Shown: piece by piece, positions 7,317 through 64,000 of the stretch
Layout: every line of letters begins with the position of its first letter
How positions within the stretch are numbered: the first letter of the stretch is position 1
Source of the DNA: Octopus vulgaris
Lineage: Eukaryota
DNA length: 64,000 bases
Assembly: GCA_951406725.2 (NCBI GenBank)
Contig: OX597835.1
Location: 33,914,001 to 33,978,000, forward strand
Reading direction: 5' to 3'
Translations under genes and position numbers: made by a program
The notes under the pieces: generated by a model
Databases searched by the model: none
Told to the model about the DNA's origin: nothing
What the model saw: only the letters and a program-made list of their open reading frames with translations

Positions 7317-7423
7317 GTAGTAGTTACGGCGGTACATATTCTAAAATTAGAACGATACAGAGAAAATTAGTATAGCCCCTGTGCAAGGATGACACGCAAA
7401 TTCGTGAACCGTTCTATAATTTT
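7317..7423 (+). pseudogene. U6: U6 snRNA pseudogene (full length, diverged)
   Basis: Colinear with U6 (ACATAT.CTAAAATT.GAACGATACAGAGAA.ATTAG...CAAGGATGACACGCAAATTCGTGAA.CGTTC.ATA.TTTT); ACAGAGA box intact at 7357-7363 but AGC triad reads AGT. Confidence 0.9.
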
Positions 7424-7510: not shown

Positions 7511-7541
<31 letters not shown>

Positions 7542-7729
7542 AATAAAATATATGCATATATATAAACATATATGTACGTACCTACCTCTACATGTACATA
7601 TACACGCATATATGTGTACAGGACACCACAAGGACGTCGAACACATAGAGAGACGAAAAACATAGACACAAACCAAGGAACAAGACAAGCAAAAAAAGGA
7701 GATACAGGACAATAAGCACAACGAAAAAT

Positions 7730-7805
7730 CCCCTTCTTCAGTCGCTAAAGTTTCATCTACTAAACGTTTCGAAGGATAAAAGCGAGACGTATACTTCGAA
7801 TGAAA
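7730..7805 (-). ncRNA. Rearranged (non-circularly permuted) hammerhead ribozyme, family 1
   Basis: Minus strand: TTTCATT..ACGTC^TCGCT-TTTAT-CCTTC-GAAACGT..GATGAAA-CTTT-AGCGA-CTGAAGA-A-GGGG; all three stems pair. Confidence 0.7.
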
Positions 7806-8248
7806 AATTCCTTCCTGCGAAAAGCAAATCAATTAAAATTCTGAGATCTTGTCGCAGAGGGGTAAAAAAAAGCAAGACGGTAACGACAGTACAAACATAT
7901 AAACAGTAAAAAATATATATATAAACAGTGGAAAAATAAATATATAACAGTGAGAGACAGGACAAGGAGAACAAGATAAGAAGGGCTGTTAACGCCAGAC
8001 GAAAAAAGTATTGCAAACGCTGGATTATATATATATATATATATATACCCCTACGACAAAACTACGAATCTTTTTTCGGCAGTACTATTTTGTGACTCAC
8101 ATGGTAGAAAAAATTTGGGAGGGAAATACGAATTCACTTGTCTATATTAATGTGGATATGCTGATTAGCTTTTATATGTTCCAATGACGCTTGGTCGGAA
8201 ATATAAGGGTCAAGTTTTCCTAGCATTTCTAGATTTATTTATCGGAAT

Positions 8249-10956: not shown

Positions 10957-10993
10957 AGTATCTGAAGAAGGACCTTCTCCGAAACGTTATATT
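10957..10993 (+). ncRNA. Minimal type I hammerhead ribozyme
   Basis: AGTAT-CTGAAGA-A-GGA CCTTC TCC-GAAACGTT^ATATT; loopless palindromic stem III as in Penelope-associated minimal HHRs. Confidence 0.6.
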
Positions 10994-12313: not shown

Positions 12314-12840
12314 CACAAATGCATACATATTTACATATATGAATATATATATGAAAATATATATATATATATATGTATGTATGTATATATATATATGTGT
12401 GTGTGTGTGTGTATACATCTATATATACATACATCTATATATATATAGATAAAGATATATCAATCCAACAATTTATCAATCAATATATCTAGCTATTATT
12501 ATATCTCTAATAATTCCACAATAATCACACAATCTACAAAAATTACCGAAGGAATTAGGGTCTTAACTGAAAAGAAATAGACTGGGAGAGAGTGTAATGT
12601 TTAGGTGATATGCTTACTCTATATAATACAAAAGAAACATGTACGTAGGGATTTTGTTTCGCTTGGAGGTGGGCATTTTTTTTCTCACCAAATCCACAAA
12701 TGCTGGCATAAGAAGGAGAAAGGGGTACGTTACGCCGCAATAATATATGTATAAAACTTATATATAAAATGTACAAAAGGGGACAAGAACGCAAACTACA
12801 CAAAGAGACGACACAAAAAAAAAACAGACAGGTCATTCGA

Positions 12841-12916
12841 AGCCTCTAATCTTCAGTCAGGAACCGGATCATCTTAACAATTTCGGCTGATTAATCCTGA
12901 TATCGCTCCGATCCGG
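12841..12916 (-). ncRNA. Rearranged hammerhead ribozyme, family 2 copy 1
   Basis: Minus strand: CCGGATC..GCGATA^TCAGGA-TTAATC-AGCC-GAAATTGT..GATCCGG-T-TCCTGA-CTGAAGA-TTAGA-GGCT. Confidence 0.7.
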
Positions 12917-13207
12917 CCAAAAAATAAAAATAAAAAACAAGAATAGTAATAACAGGACAGCGGGAGTCTTACGACTTCAGACAATTAAACTTATCTTGGC
13001 TGGCGTATTTTGAAAAAAATGCCTTTGCGGCAGACGGAGACAACGGTGTTAACATGGCAGCGGTCAAAAACCCTGTTAAGAATGAATGAGATAGATAATA
13101 AAATTAGATAAAGCTGCTTAGGTTGCTTTAACTTCTGGATTATGCAACTAATCTAGCTATACTTTTGTAGCGGCACCTCAATCATGAATGCCGCATGCAC
13201 AGTTTTA

Positions 13208-32936: not shown

Positions 32937-33314
32937 CCATTTTATATGTATTATTTCTATGGTATTATCTTACTTATTGATGTATATTGTTTTATTCTGT
33001 TTTATTCTGTTGGATTTGGATGTTCCTATTTAATTAATTAGTAAATTATATGAATTGGTATTATCTATAAGTTGATGATTGAAAGGAATCTATTCCTCCA
33101 TTTTCTTATTTTGTATATATATATATATATATAATTCGTCCCCAGTCGAAAGACACCTGTTGTTATGTCCTGTTATTATTATTATTTTTATTGTATTTAT
33201 ATTGTATTTATATTTGTGTAACATCGACTGTTTTTCCGTCCTTGTTTTCGTATACATTCGATGCTTTCTTCCAAGGAATCTAATGCTCTTAGCTTAGTTT
33301 TTCTTTGGGGCTGG

Positions 33315-33383
33315 CCAGATTGGGGCAATCTCAAGATTAATAAGCCGAAATTGTGAGGATGATCTGGTTCTTGACTGAAAGCT
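33315..33383 (+). ncRNA. Rearranged hammerhead, family 2 copy 2 (core partly deleted), in a (TA)n-flanked element 33135-33478
   Basis: CCAGATT..GCAATC^TCAAGA-TTAATA-AGCC-GAAATTGT..GATCTGG-T-TCTTGA-CTGAA[del]AGCT. Confidence 0.6.
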
Positions 33384-33477
33384 TCGAATGACCCTTGTTT
33401 TTTTTTTGTATCGTCTATCTGGATGTTTTGTTGTCCCTAGTTGTCCGGATGTTTTGCGTTCTTGTCCCATTTTGCAT

Positions 33478-33517
<40 letters not shown>

Positions 33518-35985: not shown

Positions 35986-36393
35986 TATTACTTTATTACC
36001 TACAAGGGGCTAAACACAGAGGGGACAGACATAGGTATTAAGTCGATTACATCGACCCCAGTGCGCAACTGGTACTTAATTTATCGACCCCGAAAGGATG
36101 AAAGGTAACGTCGACCTCGGCGGAATTTGAACTCACAACGTAACGGCAGACGAAATACCTATTTCTTTATTACCCACAAGGGGCTAAACATAGAGAGGAC
36201 AAACAAGGACAGACATAGGTATTAAGTCGATTACATCGACCCCAGTGCGTAACTGGTACTTAATTTATCGACCCCGAAAGGATGAAAGGCAAAGTCGACC
36301 TCGGCGGAATTTGAACTCACAACGTAACGGCAGACGAAATACGGCTACGCAATTCGCCCGACGTGCTAACGTTTCTGCCAGCTCTCCGCCTAA
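35986..36393 (-). mobile_element. SINE family B dimer, inside Tc1
   Basis: TSD TCATTTAATACC (35974-35985, 36394-36405). Confidence 0.9.
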
Positions 36394-39087: not shown

Positions 39088-42000
39088 TCACGAATGCTTT
39101 TTAGCAACTGCCATTTGGTGCATGAGAGAGTTCGATGCGGCTGCCCTCATCTGCACCTCCTGCCGTGAAGTTGGTTCATCTGGGATACCTGACAAGAAGA
39201 GATCCAGTTTCATTTTAAAGACATCTGCATCCACCCCATGCAGGTCTCTTAGGTTCTTCGAGAGGATATTGAAGAGCTGTGGGCCTCGGAAGCCCAGGCT
39301 ATCACAGTATCTTGTCCTACATCTTGATGGCAAATTTGGAGTCATTGGCACCACGCAGTTGCGCCCAGTTCTGGCATTTGTGTAACTGTCGATGCCAAAG
39401 TTTGGGACAAGTCCTTCCAGGATCTTCCAAATGTATATTATGGCCTATCTTTCTCGCTTACGCTCCAAGGAATAGAGTTTTAATCTCTTGAGTCTTTCCC
39501 AGTAGCTTATATTCTGCACAGAGGCTATCTTCTTCGTGTAGCTACGTTGGATCGCCTCAAGTTCTGTGATCAGCTTGACACTGGATGGTGACCATAGCTG
39601 AGAGCAATAGTCAAAGTGGCTTAGAACAAGTGTCCTCCAGAGGACCATCATGGTTTCTTGTTCTCTTGTTCTAAAGGTTCTAAGAATCCATCCGGCCAGT
39701 CGTCTACATTTCATTGCCAATTTAGCAACATGTACACGAAAGGTTGCGTCATCACTCATGTAAATACCCAGGTCACGCACTGATTGTGCCTCTGGAATTG
39801 CAATTCCTCCGGGTCCAGTGTATTCATTGGGTATTGCATTTAGTTTTGCTTGCTGATAGCATAAAGCTTGAAACTTTTCAGTATTGAACTGCATGCTATT
39901 CTTTTCAGCCCACTTGTATATTTTGTCCAACTCACATTGCAGGCGTTTAGTGTCCTCAGGGTTCAGTATTGCCTGTGAAACTTTTGTATCATCTGCATAA
40001 CTTGTGATCGTGGCTCTCTGCGTGGCTGAGGGCATGTCTGAGAGGGCCATTATGAACAGTAGTGGTCCCAAAACAGTGCCCTGCGGAACACCGCTCACTA
40101 TTTGCGTGTTAATGGAAGTGGCCCCATTGGCTACTACCACCTGACTTCTATCTTTCAGAAAGTCATGAAGCCATTCTCCCAGTTTTCCAACTATGCTAAC
40201 ATCACGCAGTTTGTGACATATCATTCCATGATCGACTTTATCAAAGGCCTTTGCAAAGTCGAGATATATCACTTCCACATTTGAGTGGTTGAGCAGTCGT
40301 TTCAGCACCCAGTCATAGTGTTGTAGGAGCTGAGTTAAGCAGCTTCTTCCTGGTCGGAAACCATGTTGGGTGTCAGGCAGCAAGTCATTTTCATCAAGGA
40401 AGGTGATCAGTTTCCTTCTGACTATTCGTTCCATGACCTTGCTGATGTGTGAGGTCAGAGAGATAGGTCTGTAGTTCTTGGCCTCCGCTCTGCTACCTCC
40501 TTTATGAATAGGGCATATTTTATCTTCCTTCAGTTTTCTTGGAAGTTTGCCAGCTGCAAGGAAGCTCTGAAAGAGGAACTGCAGTGGTCTTGCTAGGACT
40601 CTCTTACATACTTTTAGGAGGATTGCCGGGAATCCATCGGGGCCAGTAGCTGAGTCCGTTTTCATTTCATCTATAGCCTTTATTACATCGTCTTCCTTTA
40701 TATCGATGTAATCTATCGTCGCTGCCTCTGATTTTATATCTGCAGTGGTAAAAAAGTCAGTTGGATTGGTGATTTGGAAATGCCCAAGGGGTGGAGTGAA
40801 AACACTCTTGAATTGCTCATTCAGTATTTCACTTACCCTCATTGGTTTTCCTGTGAGTGTGCCATCCTTTTCAAGGAGTGGCCCTATCCTACAGTCCACC
40901 GTAGTTGTTTCTTTGGCATACCTGTAGAAAGCTCTGGGGTTAGATTTTATGTTGTCTATAGCCCAGGCTTCTTAGTCTGCTCTTTCCTTTTCATGGGAGA
41001 GTTGCAGACATTTTTCAATTTCCAACAGTTTTATTTTCAGGCGGGACTTTTCACTGCTTTCAATTTGTTTGTTTAGGCGATTTGAAATTTTTGTACGCCG
41101 TCTCATTAAAATCTTCCTCTCTCTGGGGATTTTGTTCTTGTGTACAGTGGCATTTCTCTCTGGGACACATTTGTAGCATATGACTTGCATTACAGACATG
41201 AATTGTTGAAGTTTCACGTCGATGTCTGGCGAGGAGAGACATTCAGGCCAGTTTTGTTTGAGGATCTCTTTCTCAATTTGTTTCCAGTTTGCCTTATGGA
41301 AGTTCAAGCTGGAAAGATTCTGAGGGTTTCTTGTAGGCTGCATGTCCATGCTTTCCTTTGGCCCGTACATGGTCAGCTCTACCATGTTGTGATCCGAGAG
41401 TAGTGTCGGTGTCACTTTCACATTATGGATGAGATCCATATTATTTGTGAAGCAGAGATCCAGTGTGTTACCTGCCCTGGTTGGTTGGAGTATTACTTGC
41501 TCCATGTACAGGGTGTTGATGAGGTTCAGGAGAGACCTCGCCTGTCCTCGTTCACATCTTGTCATTCCTGGGAGAGAAAGGTCCTCGAGCCATCTGACAT
41601 TGGGTAGATTGAAATCTCCCATAAGAAGTACACTTATGTGTGGTTCTAATGTGATTAGAACTTCTATTTTTATAAGGCAGTCTTCAAACTTGCCTACATG
41701 GCTTGGGGCATCTGGAGGGCGATATGTAGCACACACAACTACATCAAGTTGCCTTATATGTACAATTAGTGTGTCACACACCGAGTTTGAGTATGACAAA
41801 AGGACCTGAGGTGTGAGGTCCTCACGGATGTACATAGCAACTCCTCCATGACTCCTTTCTTTTCTGTCGGTCCGTAATACAACATACTGTGGTATGTGTA
41901 ATTCCGCATCTGCTATGTCCGGTTTCAGGTGCGTTTCCGTAAGTGCTATGCATAAGGCTTGATTGCATGCAACAAAGTCTCTCAGGAACGGGATTTTTGT

Positions 42001-42189
42001 CCTGTTACTGAGTGTTAGCAGTCCTCTGATGTTCAGTAGGAGCATCGAGGTGAGGTGTATGCTGTTGCCGGTGGTGTCCCCCTTGGGTCTATTTGCTGTG
42101 GTGGTCTTGTATATTGTGGGCAGTCCAATCTGCGAGCTTGGGTTTGATGAAGCCATGTTAGCTGCTGTACAATCTTTTGTGCCATGCAC
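39088..42189 (-). pseudogene. LINE ORF2 (APE endonuclease + reverse transcriptase) with two in-frame stops (40972, 39445)
   Basis: LNIRGL, ALTETHL, MGDFN, LDL, SDH; YRPISLTS, DFAKAFDKV, GVPQGTVLGP, YADD; the three ORF pieces share one frame. Confidence 0.95.
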
Positions 42190-42938
42190 AAAAAAGATTC
42201 TTGTTCAGCAGCTGCCCTTTCAACAACATCATGTTGGCGGTTTGTGGCACGCACCACATCTGCGTACCTCCGCTTTGGGGCAGGTGGTGCGTGGTCCATC
42301 CCTTTTCCTTTTGTTAGTTTGTTTCTGATCTGTTTCGTGTCTCTGCGGCAGGGTCCCCGATGTGCAAAACGGCAACCTGCACCTTCCTCTCCATGCCAGC
42401 AGGTACCTCTCAGGTAGAAACTACACACCCGTGTGCGCTGTTTGTTTCCATCCTTTTTGGTATATGGATAGTCAGTTTTACTTCTATTCTTGGCTGTTTC
42501 ATTTTTTGGTTTTGTTTGAGTTTTTCTTTTAGTTTTTCCTCCTTTTATTTCTTTTTTGTGTTTTTCATCTCCATGGCTTTTGGTGCTGGTAGGAGCACTT
42601 GCACTTGGGTTTACTTTCCGGGCAGGTTTCTCACTTGAAACTTCTTCCCGGGTGTCTACTAGGTGGGGGTGACTTCTTTCATCAGCACCCGTGTCTCCAT
42701 CCTTGCCATCTTTACTTTGTTCGTTCTCAAAGATGGCATCAAGCGTGCCAATGTGAGATCTTATAAGTGCGTAGGAGCGTATAAACTCCTGCTTCTTCCG
42801 CTCTATCTGAGCTATTGTCCTTTTATAACTACTGCTCTTCAGCGCAGCTGTAATTATATTGTTAGGATTATCTCCGTCGGCGCATTGCCAGGCTCGTACG
42901 AACAACGCCAATTCGTCACGTCTCCAGGTTCTGGACAT
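42033..42938 (-). CDS. LINE ORF1, 301 aa, with CCCH zinc finger
   Basis: Uninterrupted ORF upstream of and overlapping ORF2; CSFYLRGTCWHGEEGAGCRFAH. Confidence 0.8.
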   Translation of the reverse strand: MSRTWRRDELALFVRAWQCADGDNPNNIITAALKSSSYKRTIAQIERKKQEFIRSYALIRSHIGTLDAIFENEQSKDGKDGDTGADERSHPHLVDTREEVSSEKPARKVNPSASAPTSTKSHGDEKHKKEIKGGKTKRKTQTKPKNETAKNRSKTDYPYTKKDGNKQRTRVCSFYLRGTCWHGEEGAGCRFAHRGPCRRDTKQIRNKLTKGKGMDHAPPAPKRRYADVVRATNRQHDVVERAAAEQESFLCMAQKIVQQLTWLHQTQARRLDCPQYTRPPQQIDPRGTPPATAYTSPRCSY

Positions 42939-42944
42939 GTTGGA

Positions 42945-43500
42945 TATTTTATTTATTTATCTATCTAATTATGTTTAAAATTTAATAGTGTGATAGAGGG
43001 CAGAGAAGAAGTAAAGAAAGAAAGTGACTGTGTATTTAGAGAGATTGAGAGCTGAGAGAAGATAAGAAGATATTTTATTTATTTATCTATCTAATTATAT
43101 CTATCTAATTATATTTATTTATCTATCTAATTATATCTATCTATTATATCTAATTTATCTATCTAATTATATTTAAAATTTAATAGTGTGATAGAGGGTA
43201 GAGAAGAAAAGAGAAGGAAAGTGACTGTGTATTTAGAGAGATTGAGAGCTGAGAGAAGATAAGAAGATATTTTATTTATTTATCTATCTAATTATATCTA
43301 TCTATTATATCTAATTTATCTATCTAATTATATTTATTTATCTATCTAATTATATTTAAAATTTAATAGTGTGATAGTGGGTAGAGAAGAAGTAGAGAAA
43401 GAAAGTGACTGTGTATTTAGAGAGATTGAGAGCTGAGAGAAGATAGTGAAGAGAGGAAAGTTCGCGACTATATATTTAGAAAAATTGAGAGGCTGAGAGA
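42945..43500. repeat. Tandem repeats (3 units, 125-200 bp) in the LINE 5' region
   Basis: TTTAAAATTTAATAGTGTGATAG...GTGACTGTGTATTTAGAGAGATTGAGAGCTGAGAGAAGATA occurs three times. Confidence 0.85.
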
Positions 43501-47480: not shown

Positions 47481-47560
47481 AAGTCATACAAATTTGTATA
47501 TGTACCGACTCCAAATAGTGCACATAATATATACGTACTCGTACATGAAGAAAAATCCTA

Positions 47561-48028
47561 GGCGGCAAGCTGGCAGAAACGTTAGCACGCCGGGCGAAAT
47601 GCTTAGCGGTATTTCGTCTGCTGCTACGTTCTGAGTTCAAATTCCGCCGAGGTCGACTTCGCCTTTCATCCTTTCGGGGTCGAATAAATACGTACCAGTT
47701 ACGCACTGGGGTCGATATAATCGACTTAATCCGTTTGTCTGTTCTTGTTTGTCCTTTCTGTGTTTAGCCCCTTGTGGGTAGTAAAGAAATAGGTATTTCG
47801 CCTGCCGTTACGTTCTGAGTTCAAATTCTGCCGAGGTGGACTTTGCCTTTCATCCTTTCGGGGTCGAATAAATACGTACCAGTTACGCATTGGGGTCGAT
47901 GTAATCGACTTAATCCGTTTGTCTGTCCTCGTTTGTCCTCTCTGTTTTTAGCCCCTTGTGGGTAGTAAAGAAAAGGGTAGTTCGTCTGCCGATACATTCT
48001 GAGTTCAAATTCCGCCGAGGTCGACTTA
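47561..48028 (+). mobile_element. SINE family B multimer (about 2.3 units)
   Basis: Junctions at about 47791 and 47975 into GGTA.TTCG. Confidence 0.9.
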
Positions 48029-56266: not shown

Positions 56267-56322
<56 letters not shown>

Positions 56323-56408
56323 ATAAAAAATATATATAAAAATACAAAATCGGACAAGAACGCAAAACATTCAAATAGACGACGCAAAAAAACGGACGGG
56401 TCATTCGA

Positions 56409-56484
56409 AGCCTCTAATCTTCAGTCAAGAACCGGATCATCCTCGCAATTTCGGCCGATTAATCTGGAGATCGCTCCGATCCGG
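56409..56484 (-). ncRNA. Rearranged hammerhead ribozyme, family 2 copy 3, in element 56340-56650
   Basis: Minus strand: CCGGATC..GCGATC^TCCAGA-TTAATC-GGCC-GAAATTGC..GATCCGG-T-TCTTGA-CTGAAGA-TTAGA-GGCT. Confidence 0.7.
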
Positions 56485-57024
56485 CCAGCCCCAAGGAAAA
56501 ACTAAGCTACAAATATTAGATTTCTTGGAAAAAGGATCGAATGTATACGAAGCAAAGACAGAAAAACGGACGATGCCACACGAATATAAATACACAATAA
56601 TAATAATAACAGGACAAAAACAACAGGTGTCTTTCAACTTTAGACAGTTCAACTTAGCTTAGTTGATGTATAGGGAAAGTCTACGAAAAAAACAAAAGAC
56701 GAAGCTAGGTGGTGTACAAAATAAACAGATGTATTAGTATAGCGCTCAGGAACTGAAAAAGTCTTACGTTTTGAGCCTACGCTCTTCTACAGAAAGGGAC
56801 ACAGAAAAAACAAGGACAGAAAAAATGTGTGTAGTGGCTAACGATCTATCATGGCGACTGACTCGGACAGAAGGGTCACACACGAGAGGGAAAGTAGGGG
56901 AGATAACAAAGTAAAGATGACCCCCAACACGAAGAGAGAGAGAGATGGAGGAAGAGAGAGAGAGAAGAAAAAAGAAAACTCAGAAAACACAACACCTAAT
57001 AACCTAACGGTGTATCTTTTCTAT

Positions 57025-60718: not shown

Positions 60719-63700
60719 CTTTCTTTTATTAGCCACACAGGGCTGAATACAGAGGGGACAAATACAAATGCAGAACTTTTCTTTTCGAGGGTGGAAAAAA
60801 AGAAAAGAAATCGTGTATCACAGAAATAATGATAAAAACATTGATAAAACAAGATTAGGTTCATCCGTGGGAAGAAAAGCCTACAGAAAAGACCACGGGA
60901 ACCTCAGTTAGGGAGGAAATAACCACATGAGATCAAAATGCTCTCTTTCTTTCTTGTTTACGATCTACAGGATCATGCTCAAAATGGTTTCGTTACTCGC
61001 ACGCACCATCTTTGCAACATTCACCCATCTTTTTTTGAATCTTTCGCGAGACAAAACTTCCCTCTCCATTCTCACCTTCCTTTTCAAGTGGTACATGAAA
61101 AAGTTGATGAGCGATTGGCCAGAGAGGTAAGTGTTTGTCTCTAATCCTTTCGCTCGGGTCCACCACACACATTCTTTCACCATGGCCATCAGTACGATGA
61201 AAACTGCCTTGCCTTCCCGGTTGAGGTAAGGAGGCGGAGCAATTCGCACGATAGACTCGGCCGATAGGCGGATTCGTCCCACACGTGACAGCAGCCGTTC
61301 GGCATAAGCCCACAGGTCTGAAATGGTTGGACATTGCACGAGTGCGTGCAGAACGGTTTCGTCGCTCTGACCGCATCTCGGGCAAGTCGGTCCAGTGTGC
61401 CTGGAATCGTGTCTGCAGAGCTTATCCCAAACAGGTAATGCTTCTCGATAGCACTGCCAGGCCAGGGATCTTTGGTGATTGTTCATAGGTCCCGGCCCGA
61501 AAGTTGTCCTGAACAGGCGGGTCAGGTGTTCCTCGTCGACGCCCAGACTCTGCCCGAGTTCGTCGTCGCACCTCCCCTCCACTAATCCTCTATAGAATGC
61601 CTTTGTTGTGATGGAGTCGCACAAGTTCGATCCCGGACGGCAGAGTTGCTTGAGAGCAACGCGACACTCGCGGTGCCATTCGCCTAGCCTCGGTCTCTGC
61701 TTGATCCATGACTGTAGTTCGTCCAAGGAGACGAGCTGCGGGAAAGCGCGCCGCACAAAAGGCGACCACACCTGTTCACCGTTGTCTATGAAGCACCGGA
61801 GATGTCGCAGTCTCAGCGCATGTCTGCGCATCATCAACCACGGCATGCCCAGCCCTCCATTTAGCGGGTGTTGACAGCAAATGGATCGCCTAACCATCGG
61901 AACGTTTCCCTTCCACAAAAAGCGGAAGAGTATACGTTCCAGTTTGGTGATGGTAGGGTCGGGACAAGGCACGACGGTCAGACGATACTCGATGACGGAT
62001 GCGATGTACGCGTTCGCTACCTCCGCCCGACCTTTTAGGGATAGCTTTCTCTCAGCCCATTTCTGGGTGAGAGTAGCCACCCTAGTCGTTATCTCGCCCC
62101 AGTTCTTCTCCATTTGGAGGTCCGGACCGAACCAGACCCCGAGCAATTTAACCGGTCCGTCCGTCCAGCGTCCCACGATGGAGACGCTGTTGGACGGCAT
62201 GGGCCTACTTCTCCAGGTGCCTAGCCGCAAGCCCACTGACTTTTCCCGGTTAATTTTTGCTCCCGTTACCGCTTCGTATTCTTTTAGTGTCTCGCCGACC
62301 AGCTCGATGTGCTCGTAGCTCGACACTATGACGGTGACGTCATCCGCGTATGCAGACACGCTCCTCCCGCATCCCAGCTCTCGTGGGATGTCCCTCAGCG
62401 TCGCCAGTTCCGCAGTAGTAGCTCAAGAGTCAATACATACAGCAGCGATGAGAGGGGGCATCCCTGACGAACCGAACGCATGATGTTAAAAGGTCTGGAT
62501 AGATGACCATTTACGCGAACTACTGAGCGGATGCCGCTGTATAAGGCAGCGATCCAACCGCGGAAAACTGGACCGAAATCAGCCGCTTTAAGGACAGCCT
62601 CCAAGTAGTGATGGTCTACCCTATCGAAAGCTTTTGATTGATCCAAATTGATCCGCGCCCCACCCATGCCAGGATTCTTAACTACCCTGTCTATGATGTA
62701 GCGCATCAGATGGAGGTTGTCATGAATACTTCTACCCGGCACAGCGCATGTTTGCGCCTTGTCGATTAGTTTCTTGATGACAAGAGCCAACCTCTCGGCT
62801 AACACCTTGGCCAAAATTTTCAAATCTGCGTTGAGCAGAGTGATGGGCCTGAAATTATCTATGACGTCCCCCTTGTTTGGGTCTTTCTTAATCAGTGCCA
62901 CTGCTCCTCGCTTTACAAAAGCAGGAATACTCCCGTTTTGCTGCCAGTTGCAGTAGACAGCTGCCAAGACGCCTCCAAACAAGTCTGGCATATGAAAATA
63001 AAGTTCGTAGGGCAGACCATCCAAGCCTGGTGACTTGTCTCTCGCGCAGCCTACCATCGCATCCTGTACGTCCGCAGCTGTGATAGGCCTTTCACAAGAC
63101 TCCACCTCTCTTGCTGAGAGTCGTGGCAAGGCATGCAGGTAGGCACTAAAGTCCACTCTGCGTTCTGACCCACCACTTGTCCCAAACAGTTGGGTGAAGT
63201 GTTGTTGAAAAGCCCCACACATCCTTTTAGGCTCGAGCAATTCGCGCCCCTGTTCATCTATAAGAGACTTGATGGTGGCTCTGTTGCCTCGTTGCGTCTC
63301 CACCACTCGGGCCTCTTGGGCGGCTCCAACTCCTTCGTTCCTCAGAGCCCGCATTCTAGCTCTGACAACGCATCCTTCGTGTTTGGCGTTGAGGTGTTGG
63401 TCGAGGGCCAATCTCGCCGCCAGCACGTTGGACGCGATGCCAGGTCTAAGTGCCTCTCCTAAAACCCTAACTAATTCTCCCTCTATTCTATTTCGGTCTA
63501 ATGCTAGGGCTTTACTGTATCTGACTGATTCTGCTTTAATTGCTTTTTTTAGGGCATACCACCATCTGTTGTTGATGATGGTACCCGTCAAAGCTCTCTT
63601 AACTAATGTGCTGATCCGGTCCCTGTAAACCTGTCGTGCTGTAAAAGACGCGTTCAGTTTCGAGTAACCAGGACCCTGCCTATGTGTCTTATCTAAGTCA

Positions 63701-64000
63701 AGTGTACAAGTTACAAACTTGTGATCTGTGTAACTGACTATATGAAATTGTGGACAACCTACACTATTTTTATCTATTGTCCTACAGAATACTCTATCTA
63801 AGTATGATCTGGACGACCCGATGCGGTTACTCCATGTCCACATTGGCACATTCGGGTGGTCCAGTCGGTACCTGTCAGACAGTTGGAAACGTCTGAGCAG
63901 GTCTTTGAGGCATTTGCATCCCCTTCTATTGCTATCTCTACCCACGTAGTCTACATGCGTGTCCAGGGTGGCATTCCAATCCCCCACGAAAAGTAAAGGA
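60718..64000 (-). mobile_element. L1/Tx1-clade LINE, continues beyond the window; 3' end abuts (TATC)n at 60645-60717
   Basis: APE-RT-CCHC ORF2, 3' UTR with AATAAA. Confidence 0.93.
60965..63987 (-). pseudogene. Tx1-type ORF2 with a single 1-nt frameshift near 62408
   Basis: GDWN, YLDR, TDH; SPGLDGLPYELY, FRPITLLNADLKIL, DQSKAFDRVDH, VRQGCPLS, AYADD; CPRC...ETVLHALVQC. Confidence 0.93.

Follow-up and report, generated by a model that had tools for sequence, protein, structure and literature searches.

The window analysed here, the whole 64,000-nt stretch C22:33914001-33978000, comes from a 2.8-Gb, microsatellite-rich assembly of Octopus vulgaris. It contains three copies of one repeat (family 2) and one copy of another (family 1), each with a hammerhead-like domain whose strands are rearranged (Table 1). 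The family-2 copies lie where an initial annotation of this DNA had placed them, and the strand order that it proposed also held: block S (stem III 3' strand, UH, stem I 3' strand) is followed by block G (stem II 3' strand, GAAA, stem III 5' strand) and then by block C (stem I 5' strand, CUGAAGA). The NUH triplets are AUA, AUC and AUC in copies 1, 2 and 3, and the cut predicted in copy 1 had been placed correctly. In line with the annotation, which had called families 1 and 2 unrelated in sequence, the two showed no significant similarity in dust-filtered BLAST.

We propose that the core is split and that one strand of stem II lies upstream of these three blocks. Read 5' to 3', the domain would begin with the 3' strand of a helix P4, a hairpin P0, the 5' strands of stem II and of a helix X, the 3' strand of stem III, UH and the 3' strand of stem I. 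A 5-nt linker, the 3' strand of stem II, GAAA, the 5' strand of stem III, a kink-turn-like loop, the 3' strand of X, the 5' strand of stem I, CUGANGA and the 5' strand of P4 would complete it.

All three family-2 copies in the window are 5'-truncated and damaged. Copy 1 has an internal deletion of ~103 nt just 5' of 12918, which removed the P4 3' strand, P0 and the stem II 5' strand, and is probably dead. A cleavage test on this copy would probe a deletion mutant and could falsely refute the ribozyme. A 7-nt deletion after CUGA destroyed the core of copy 2. Copy 3 is the sole family-2 copy in the window with every part present and has one stem I mismatch (C.U at pair 3), so the two copies described as intact, 1 and 3, both carry defects. 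The family-1 copy is 97-99% identical to an 836-nt tandem unit.

The window has several other features. The family-1 element ends ~115 nt away from a U6 snRNA copy (7317-7423 (+), Rfam 90.1 bits, several substitutions), which is probably a pseudogene. Minimal hammerhead cores in type I order occur in other repeat families at 10962 (+), 48903 (+) and 49485 (-), the last two being near-identical inverted copies with CCGACGA. Two LINE-like elements, at 39448-42956 (-) with long open frames of 307, 410 and 508 aa and at 60968-63999 (-) with frames of 534 and 485 aa, show endonuclease- and RT-like motifs by eye. A 370-nt inverted repeat pair (36023-36392 and 47559-47928) is 90% complementary across 11 kb.

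Table 1 Features of the hammerhead-like domains in the window; the fold and the cuts are predicted.
Feature	Position	Strand	Details
Family-2 copy 1 (subfamily A), 5'-truncated unit	12714..13068	-	
Copy 1 ribozyme span	12916-12841	-	76 nt
Copy 1 helix X 5' strand (I-II interaction helix)	12910..12917	-	partner 12870-12863
Copy 1 block S	12895..12906	-	stem III 3' strand 12906-12902; H17 12901; stem I 3' strand 12900-12895
Copy 1 predicted cut	12901/12900	-	insertions at homologous bond in other copies
Copy 1 block G	12876..12889	-	stem II 3' strand 12889-12885; GAAA 12884-12881; stem III 5' strand; then 3-nt bulge and GA of kink-turn-like loop
Copy 1 stem I 5' strand and CUGAAGA	12850..12862	-	stem I 12862-12857; CUGAAGA 12856-12850
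Copy 1 P4 5' strand	12834..12849	-	'insert' of the initial annotation, GGCU and next 7 nt; pairing partner deleted in this copy
Family-2 copy 2 (subfamily B)	33143..33483	+	
Copy 2 ribozyme span	33315-33383	+	69 nt
Copy 2 P4 3' strand	33255-33270	+	
Copy 2 P0	33271-33308	+	
Copy 2 stem II 5' strand	33309-33313	+	
Copy 2 predicted cut	33330/33331	+	
Copy 2 GAAA	33347-33350	+	
Family-2 copy 3	56315..56661	-	
Copy 3 ribozyme span	56484-56409	-	76 nt
Copy 3 P4 3' strand	56543-56529	-	
Copy 3 P0	56528-56491	-	
Copy 3 stem II 5' strand	56490-56486	-	
Copy 3 helix X	56485-56478	-	
Copy 3 predicted cut	56469/56468	-	
Copy 3 GAAA	56452-56449	-	
Copy 3 CUGAAGA	56424-56418	-	
Copy 3 P4 5' strand	56417-56402	-	
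Family-1 copy	7538..8029	-	split-core layout as in family 2
Family-1 copy P4 3' strand	7862-7858	-	
Family-1 copy P0	7857-7815	-	
Family-1 copy stem II 5' strand	7814-7809	-	6 bp
Family-1 copy predicted cut	7786/7785	-	
Family-1 copy stem II 3' strand	7776-7771	-	
Family-1 copy GAAA	7770-7767	-	
Family-1 copy CUGAAGA	7741-7735	-	
Family-1 copy P4 5' strand	7734-7730	-	

Conservation and pairing of the split core

The motif occurs far beyond chance. A pattern fixing both stem II strands had 4,040 exact matches in the genome and its reversed control had none; the first genome search returned 2,871 candidates, 40 of which were scored. The descriptor had no match in three shuffles of 440 kb or in 200 kb of arbitrary genome stretches, and the family-2 pattern had none in metagenome and viral contigs. 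We aligned 108 distinct family-2 copies of the 140 found, dropping 28 whose upstream part was missing or had an indel (window copy 1 among them) and four with a 3' indel. The core reads CUGA(A/G)GA in 96 of the 108 copies and GAAA in 107, the A15.1-U16.1 pair is present in all 108, and H17 is C or A in 106.

The core nucleotides and the NUH triplet are all kept across five families. The hammerhead class is defined by these elements (CUGANGA, GAAA and NUH with A15.1-U16.1), by three covarying stems and by site-specific self-cleavage, which is a prediction for the octopus form; here stems I and III covary within family 2 and stem II only across families. Since no stem II pair changed on both sides within family 2, support for this stem comes across families. 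The S-G-C order differs from the circularly permuted orders of types I, II and III. Rfam gave no hammerhead among the first 150 of 305 matches listed for the whole window. Narrower searches of copy 1 and of four loci with the full domain matched no hammerhead family at E<=10. A type I reading from CUGAAGA with downstream GAAU...GUC was rejected by eye, as it has no stem I and no A15.1-U16.1 pair.

The 5' strand of stem II follows the P0 hairpin directly, with no linker. This upstream strand, 38-39 nt before GAAA, is paired in 533/540 alignment cells of the 108 copies, many of which were chosen on that stem. The initial annotation had formed stem II from GGCU downstream of CUGAAGA, where 376/432 cells are paired and G10.1-C11.1 is lost in 34 of the 108 copies. 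Among the 54 family-2 copies not selected on stem II, the upstream strand pairs in 212/216 cells versus 187/216 downstream, the stem is complete in 50 versus 34 copies, and 10.1-11.1 is paired in 52 versus 35. Within a 2-nt slip, the downstream strand has a Watson-Crick run of 0-2 bp versus 5-6 bp upstream (6/6 representatives). Both-side changes affect none of the four downstream pairs, and 10/28 copies have lost the pair at 10.1-11.1. The alignments suggest that the downstream stem II is probably wrong.

The split-core layout recurs, with different stem sequences, in four families besides family 2. Families 3 and 4 were found incidentally by the descriptor in the loci analysed; 20 copies of each were taken, and 20 and 17 were parsed. 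Both keep stems I, II and III with differing stem sequences. Stem II pairs upstream in 119/120 cells versus 79/120 in register downstream in family 3, and in 82/85 versus 33/85 in family 4, for a descriptor that required stem II but not P0 or P4. In family 5, whose pattern fixed stem II, the downstream strand pairs in 41/114 cells. The family-1 downstream register reaches 150/180 via G.U (5/6 by wobble), with A.C at 10.1-11.1. P0 and P4 follow each other without a linker, with 257/270 and 134/135 cells paired in family 1, 132/133 and 93/95 in family 3, and 99/102 and 94/102 in family 4. Families 1, 3 and 4 are related (68-81% over 130-195 nt), so that, with families 2 and 5 added, the five families count as about three independent lineages.

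P4 forms between the bases that follow CUGAAGA and the strand immediately 5' of P0. According to the model, a four-way junction would open the core between A9 and G10.1, with the chain leading from A9 through P4 and P0 to G10.1. This branch is near the active site and might hinder catalysis. The two junction-proximal P4 pairs are mostly U.U in family 2 (unpaired in 17 and 23 of 28 copies). The UUAGA described by the initial annotation as a 5-nt insert, able to pair with the UUAA linker, is the first strand of P4; the linker pairing, present in 76.8% of cells and with 0/4 pairs changed on both sides, was rejected.

Over 28 copies, the full model of 55 pairs is 92.1% paired. Sixteen of the 55 pairs changed on both sides versus 8.9+/-1.6 in shuffles (0/500 as high) and at most 7 in slid controls, where it should be kept in mind that related sequences can beat such shuffles and that the model was drawn from these same families. 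Both-side changes affect 4/6 pairs of stem I, 4/9 of X and 4/15 of P4. The stem I difference between copies 1 and 2 (TCAGGA/TCCTGA versus TCAAGA/TCTTGA) is as originally described. The one quoted for X also exists but is weak alone, being mismatched in 10/28 copies and located at a CpG; three further X pairs also changed on both sides. In subfamily C, an extra A-U pair was gained in both strands of stem III (12/108 copies). The earlier wiring also beats its own shuffles because it has stems I, III and X in common with the split-core model. Nested folds have unremarkable energies (z -0.04 to -0.99 in 4/5, with pseudoknots outside the folding model), as expected with two pseudoknotted stems left out.

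Helix X is paired in 808/864 cells (108 copies). It was rightly recognised as an extra helix, but its role is different: once stem II uses its upstream strand, X links the sequence following II 5' with that preceding I 5' and serves as a stem I-II interaction helix, connected to stem III by a kink-turn-like loop. Type SGC hammerheads have a helix that connects stems I and II at their distal ends, and X fits this part only with the upstream II 5' strand. The kink-turn consensus separates two helices by a 3-nt bulge and then tandem G.A/A.G. Family 2 has a 3-nt bulge of free sequence and then tandem GA (103 and 101 of 108 copies) where stem III meets X. The pattern is clear in families 2 and 5 and absent in families 1, 3 and 4, and a loop of this sequence could bend X back toward stems I and II. 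In families 1 and 4 (L061-L090, L089, L186-L205), a GAAG/AGUA internal loop lies between stem III and X; we take it to resemble the loop-E/bulged-G motif, where family 2 has the kink-turn pattern. We hold with high confidence that the pairing scheme is real. In the folded RNA, P4 would stack coaxially on P0 beside the II/III stack, and X would bend round to meet stems I and II at their tops.

The predicted cut, the carrier unit and Naiad elements

A pattern search with a longer gap, returning insertion variants only, gave 25 copies in which additional bases precede the GAAA block. In eight of these the addition is a local duplication, which spans the cut in three cases. Among the 17 others, 15 have the insert exactly at the predicted scissile bond, compared with 1.5 expected if inserts were spread over 17 positions, a null that covers the upstream side of the cut only. 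The inserts are 2-8 nt long (48 A, 13 G and 3 T; nine end in G), vary in sequence and occur in several subfamily backgrounds. We interpret them as a likely trace of in vivo cleavage; the simplest reading is that the RNA was broken at this bond, tailed, and then rejoined or crossed by a template jump. Family 1 had no insertions at the cut. Element 5' ends at the cut were found in two real cases (L016 and L107), too small a number to weigh, and five further 5' ends at 'position 1' proved to be chaining artefacts. Judging from the sequences, self-cleavage at the predicted bond is highly likely.

In tandem arrays the unit recurs every 685-772 nt in family 2 and every 835-836 nt in family 1. The initial annotation had assumed a 300-350-bp unit; the window copies are 5'-truncated and the real unit is about twice as long. 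Units are non-coding and ~68% pyrimidine, with only low-complexity frames, none of them shared. A comparison of subfamilies A and C shows the ribozyme domain to be more conserved than the remainder of the unit (97/124, 78%, versus 393/685, 57%). The 3' ends have a fixed place within the unit, an AU-rich site that lies 134-252 nt beyond the cut and passes into (TA)n, and fall on a single base in 17/23 cases in family 1, 20/28 in subfamily C and 15/31 in subfamily A. The 5' ends are scattered, and insertions continue across the cut, spanning as many as five units; five direct units and one inverted unit lie at C2:83.36 Mb. For family 1 and subfamily C, 40/40 scored matches were 100% identical, and by their sequences both are very young. 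Across 90 loci, none of the family-1 or family-2 copies continued into an ORF, and measurable 5' ends map within the unit. The pattern fits target-primed copying by microhomology on what would be a circular or multimeric template. At L008, L018, L078 and L145, short inverted element pieces abut the insertion 5' ends; such pieces are described for Penelope-like elements.

Abundant unit-length RNA, linear and circular, is a further trait of animal retrozymes. The octopus unit is present in 20/24 sequencing-run rows (four organism codes, 8 studies), none recorded as RNA. Four contig sets, from runs guessed to be RNA, have two unit-length contigs with a 30-nt terminal overlap, which looks alike for a circle, a tandem or DNA and is given no weight as evidence; no insertion at the cut is listed for these sets. 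A 485-aa frame with a Penelope-like RT plus GIY-YIG at the C terminus (L206:3619-5073 (+); Pfam RVT_1 and weak GIY-YIG) is 5'-truncated in (TA)n. The 3' end of this element has a conserved motif shared with L176 that is not a standard hammerhead core, and the frame is a candidate helper enzyme. It lies beside a subfamily-C tandem, on the opposite strand and lacking this ribozyme, and was not taken as the RT partner.

We consider it probable, on the whole, that an SGC-order split-core hammerhead processes a non-coding retroelement that is recopied into (TA)n. The ribozyme would likely cut tandem transcripts of the 685-836-nt element into unit-length RNAs. These would be rejoined, with an RtcB-like ligation by analogy with animal retrozymes, and a Penelope-like reverse transcriptase would likely return them as copies to (TA)n microsatellites. 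Fold and target, both shared, suggest that family 2 would descend from the 3' end of a Naiad-type element. Of the original picture of a rearranged hammerhead selected for function in a mobile RNA, the SGC order, the mobile carrier and the selection stand, and the wiring was redrawn.

Naiads are Penelope-like elements that target (TA)n and are reported to lack canonical hammerheads (Craig et al. 2021, PMC8557442); a table in the supplement of that paper flags 'core' and 'half core' cases, one of them from octopus. That table lists at least 53 rows; for 46 of the Naiad consensi we read ~400-450 nt of the 3' end by eye. The split-core fold is visible in 8/46, from comb jelly to octopus: Bfor (comb jelly), Amil, Aacu and Anas (which we take to be corals), Plae (acanthocephalan), EuTe (presumably a crustacean), and Obim and Ovul (octopus), with P0/P4 only partly visible in Plae and the EuTe fold judged apart from P0/P4. 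These examples have a perfect 6-bp upstream stem II. Six nematode 3' ends (three Nbra, Hcon, Hpol and Asuum) show by eye an intact-block type CSG, whose order is a circular permutation of the SGC order. The remaining 32/46 showed neither form by eye in the part covered.

The six nematode CSG hammerheads are clean; type CSG has so far been described from two metagenomic sequences only. Spider and ostracod 'half core' ends fit neither form by eye. Several bivalve and hydrozoan 3' ends (Craig 2021 File S5) have common structured-looking motifs with no hammerhead core, possibly other ribozymes.

The octopus Naiad ribozyme (family 5) has 213 exact genome matches. It lies ~800 nt past a decayed ORF end in 13/15 loci, the only family to do so, and the Naiad copies sampled in the octopus genome are old and broken. 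We lean, somewhat beyond even odds, toward a broader view: Naiads and their non-coding parasites across animals would carry hidden, non-circularly permuted hammerheads, and the split-core form, which is outside the six permutations thought possible, would have arisen from CSG by circular permutation via tandem copying, would cleave in vivo and would drive 0.7-0.8-kb circular RNAs in thousands of copies. If this is true, hammerhead topology extends past the three-block scheme to a strand break and two helices inside the core, and non-circular permutations, so far from unassigned environmental sequence, occur in animal genomes at high copy number. It would also explain why Naiads seemed to be without the ribozyme that other Penelope-like elements have. 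For RNA engineering, a place in the core that takes up whole helices would be a new attachment site, and the split-core descriptor can be applied to any genome.

Alternative readings and known systems

The same pairs could also act in a domain-swapped dimer, in which S and G of one unit pair with II 5' and I 5'-CUGANGA of the next and cutting needs two units per transcript. In families 1, 3 and 4 and Naiad_EuTe, stem III and X together measure 15-21 bp and are nearly continuous, with linkers of 0-4 nt. By rough geometry, such a straight rod would be out of reach of the tops of stems I and II within one molecule. The elements occur as tandems, and dimer cleavage is reported for vertebrate retrozymes (PMC7229834). 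However, the family-2 bulge and tandem GA would allow a monomer, and the SGC RNAs described by Eckert et al., which pose the same geometric puzzle, still cleave co-transcriptionally (PMC10085705). We regard an obligate dimer as unlikely.

Two further readings seem less probable than the dimer. One keeps the fold and gives up cleavage, the structure serving reverse transcriptase recognition or protein binding. The subfamily C kink-turn region has some likeness to a box C motif (a weak match to sR5, E 3.2), and the branch sits at a sensitive core position; yet the core and NUH are kept in five families, H17 is nearly always C or A, and insertions cluster at the scissile bond, which makes a loss of cleavage improbable. 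The other, marginally less probable still, is the ordinary type SGC wiring of the initial annotation, with the 5-nt insert looped out and the upstream pairing as an inhibitory switch. It keeps block C in one piece, as Eckert et al. assumed (PMC10085705), its four base pairs are complete in 71/108 family-2 copies, and family 1 has its wobble-rich downstream register. However, one whole subfamily pairs only 2/4, the bases in question covary with P4 and show no both-side changes downstream, families 4 and 5 pair poorly there, and the Naiad examples have perfect upstream stems. The split-core monomer remains our preferred reading.

We searched the literature, with few subscription journals covered, and found no hammerhead branched at A9/G10.1, no SGC hammerhead in animals and no permuted hammerheads in Naiads; 'type-SGC' appeared only in Eckert et al. 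The available parts of a catalogue of core variants (Perreault 2011, PMC3088659) contain no A9/G10.1 branch. The comparisons with Eckert et al. and with the Li et al. preprint were made on passages of these articles. In the (+) hammerhead of CChMVd, a natural extra A between A9 and G10.1 is described as compatible with cleavage (PMC3705267, PMC1636495); there the position holds one nucleotide, in the octopus form two helices and, in a circle, also the rest of the unit.

Naiads as described by Craig et al. (PMC8557442) resemble our elements: they target (TA)n, are truncated at the 5' end, and form partial tandems and inverted 5' pieces. Family 2 differs in having no ORF and no clear or alignable similarity to the octopus Naiad 3' end. 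Families 1 and 2 lack the Naiad ORF with N-terminal GIY-YIG, CxC and RT, and share (TA)n insertion, 5' truncation, and tandem and inverted pieces, which other Penelope-like clades also show.

Animal retrozymes have been tied to type I hammerheads (Cervera and de la Pena 2020, PMC7229834; Li et al. 2026, 10.64898/2026.07.22.740005). According to these sources, non-LTR retrozymes are likewise low-GC, non-coding tandem units with one hammerhead each, dispersed as monomers and multimers, with a proposed Penelope-like origin. The octopus elements are also tandem non-coding units with one ribozyme. They differ from the type I hammerheads and ~170-400-nt units described there (PMC7229834) in being 685-836 nt long, ~68% pyrimidine and invisible to type I descriptors and Rfam.

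The closest ribozymes are the type SGC and CSG hammerheads that Eckert et al. (2023, PMC10085705) describe from metatranscriptomes and metagenomes, none from a known eukaryote; they report type SGC from metatranscriptomes and from no genome of a known organism. They share with the octopus form the non-circular cyclic block order, the core, a short linker between I 3' and II 3', and a helix formed by the sequence following II 5' and the one preceding I 5'. In their scheme, block C (I 5'-CUGAnGA-II 5') is assumed to be uninterrupted, with at most 1-2 nt inserted. The octopus form has the S, G, C order and occurs in thousands of animal-genome copies, but its II 5' strand does not lie 0-2 nt from CUGANGA: the series opens with II 5' and closes with CUGANGA, and P4/P0 rejoin the two. 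The element would behave like a hammerhead retrozyme and belongs neither to types I-III nor strictly to type SGC.
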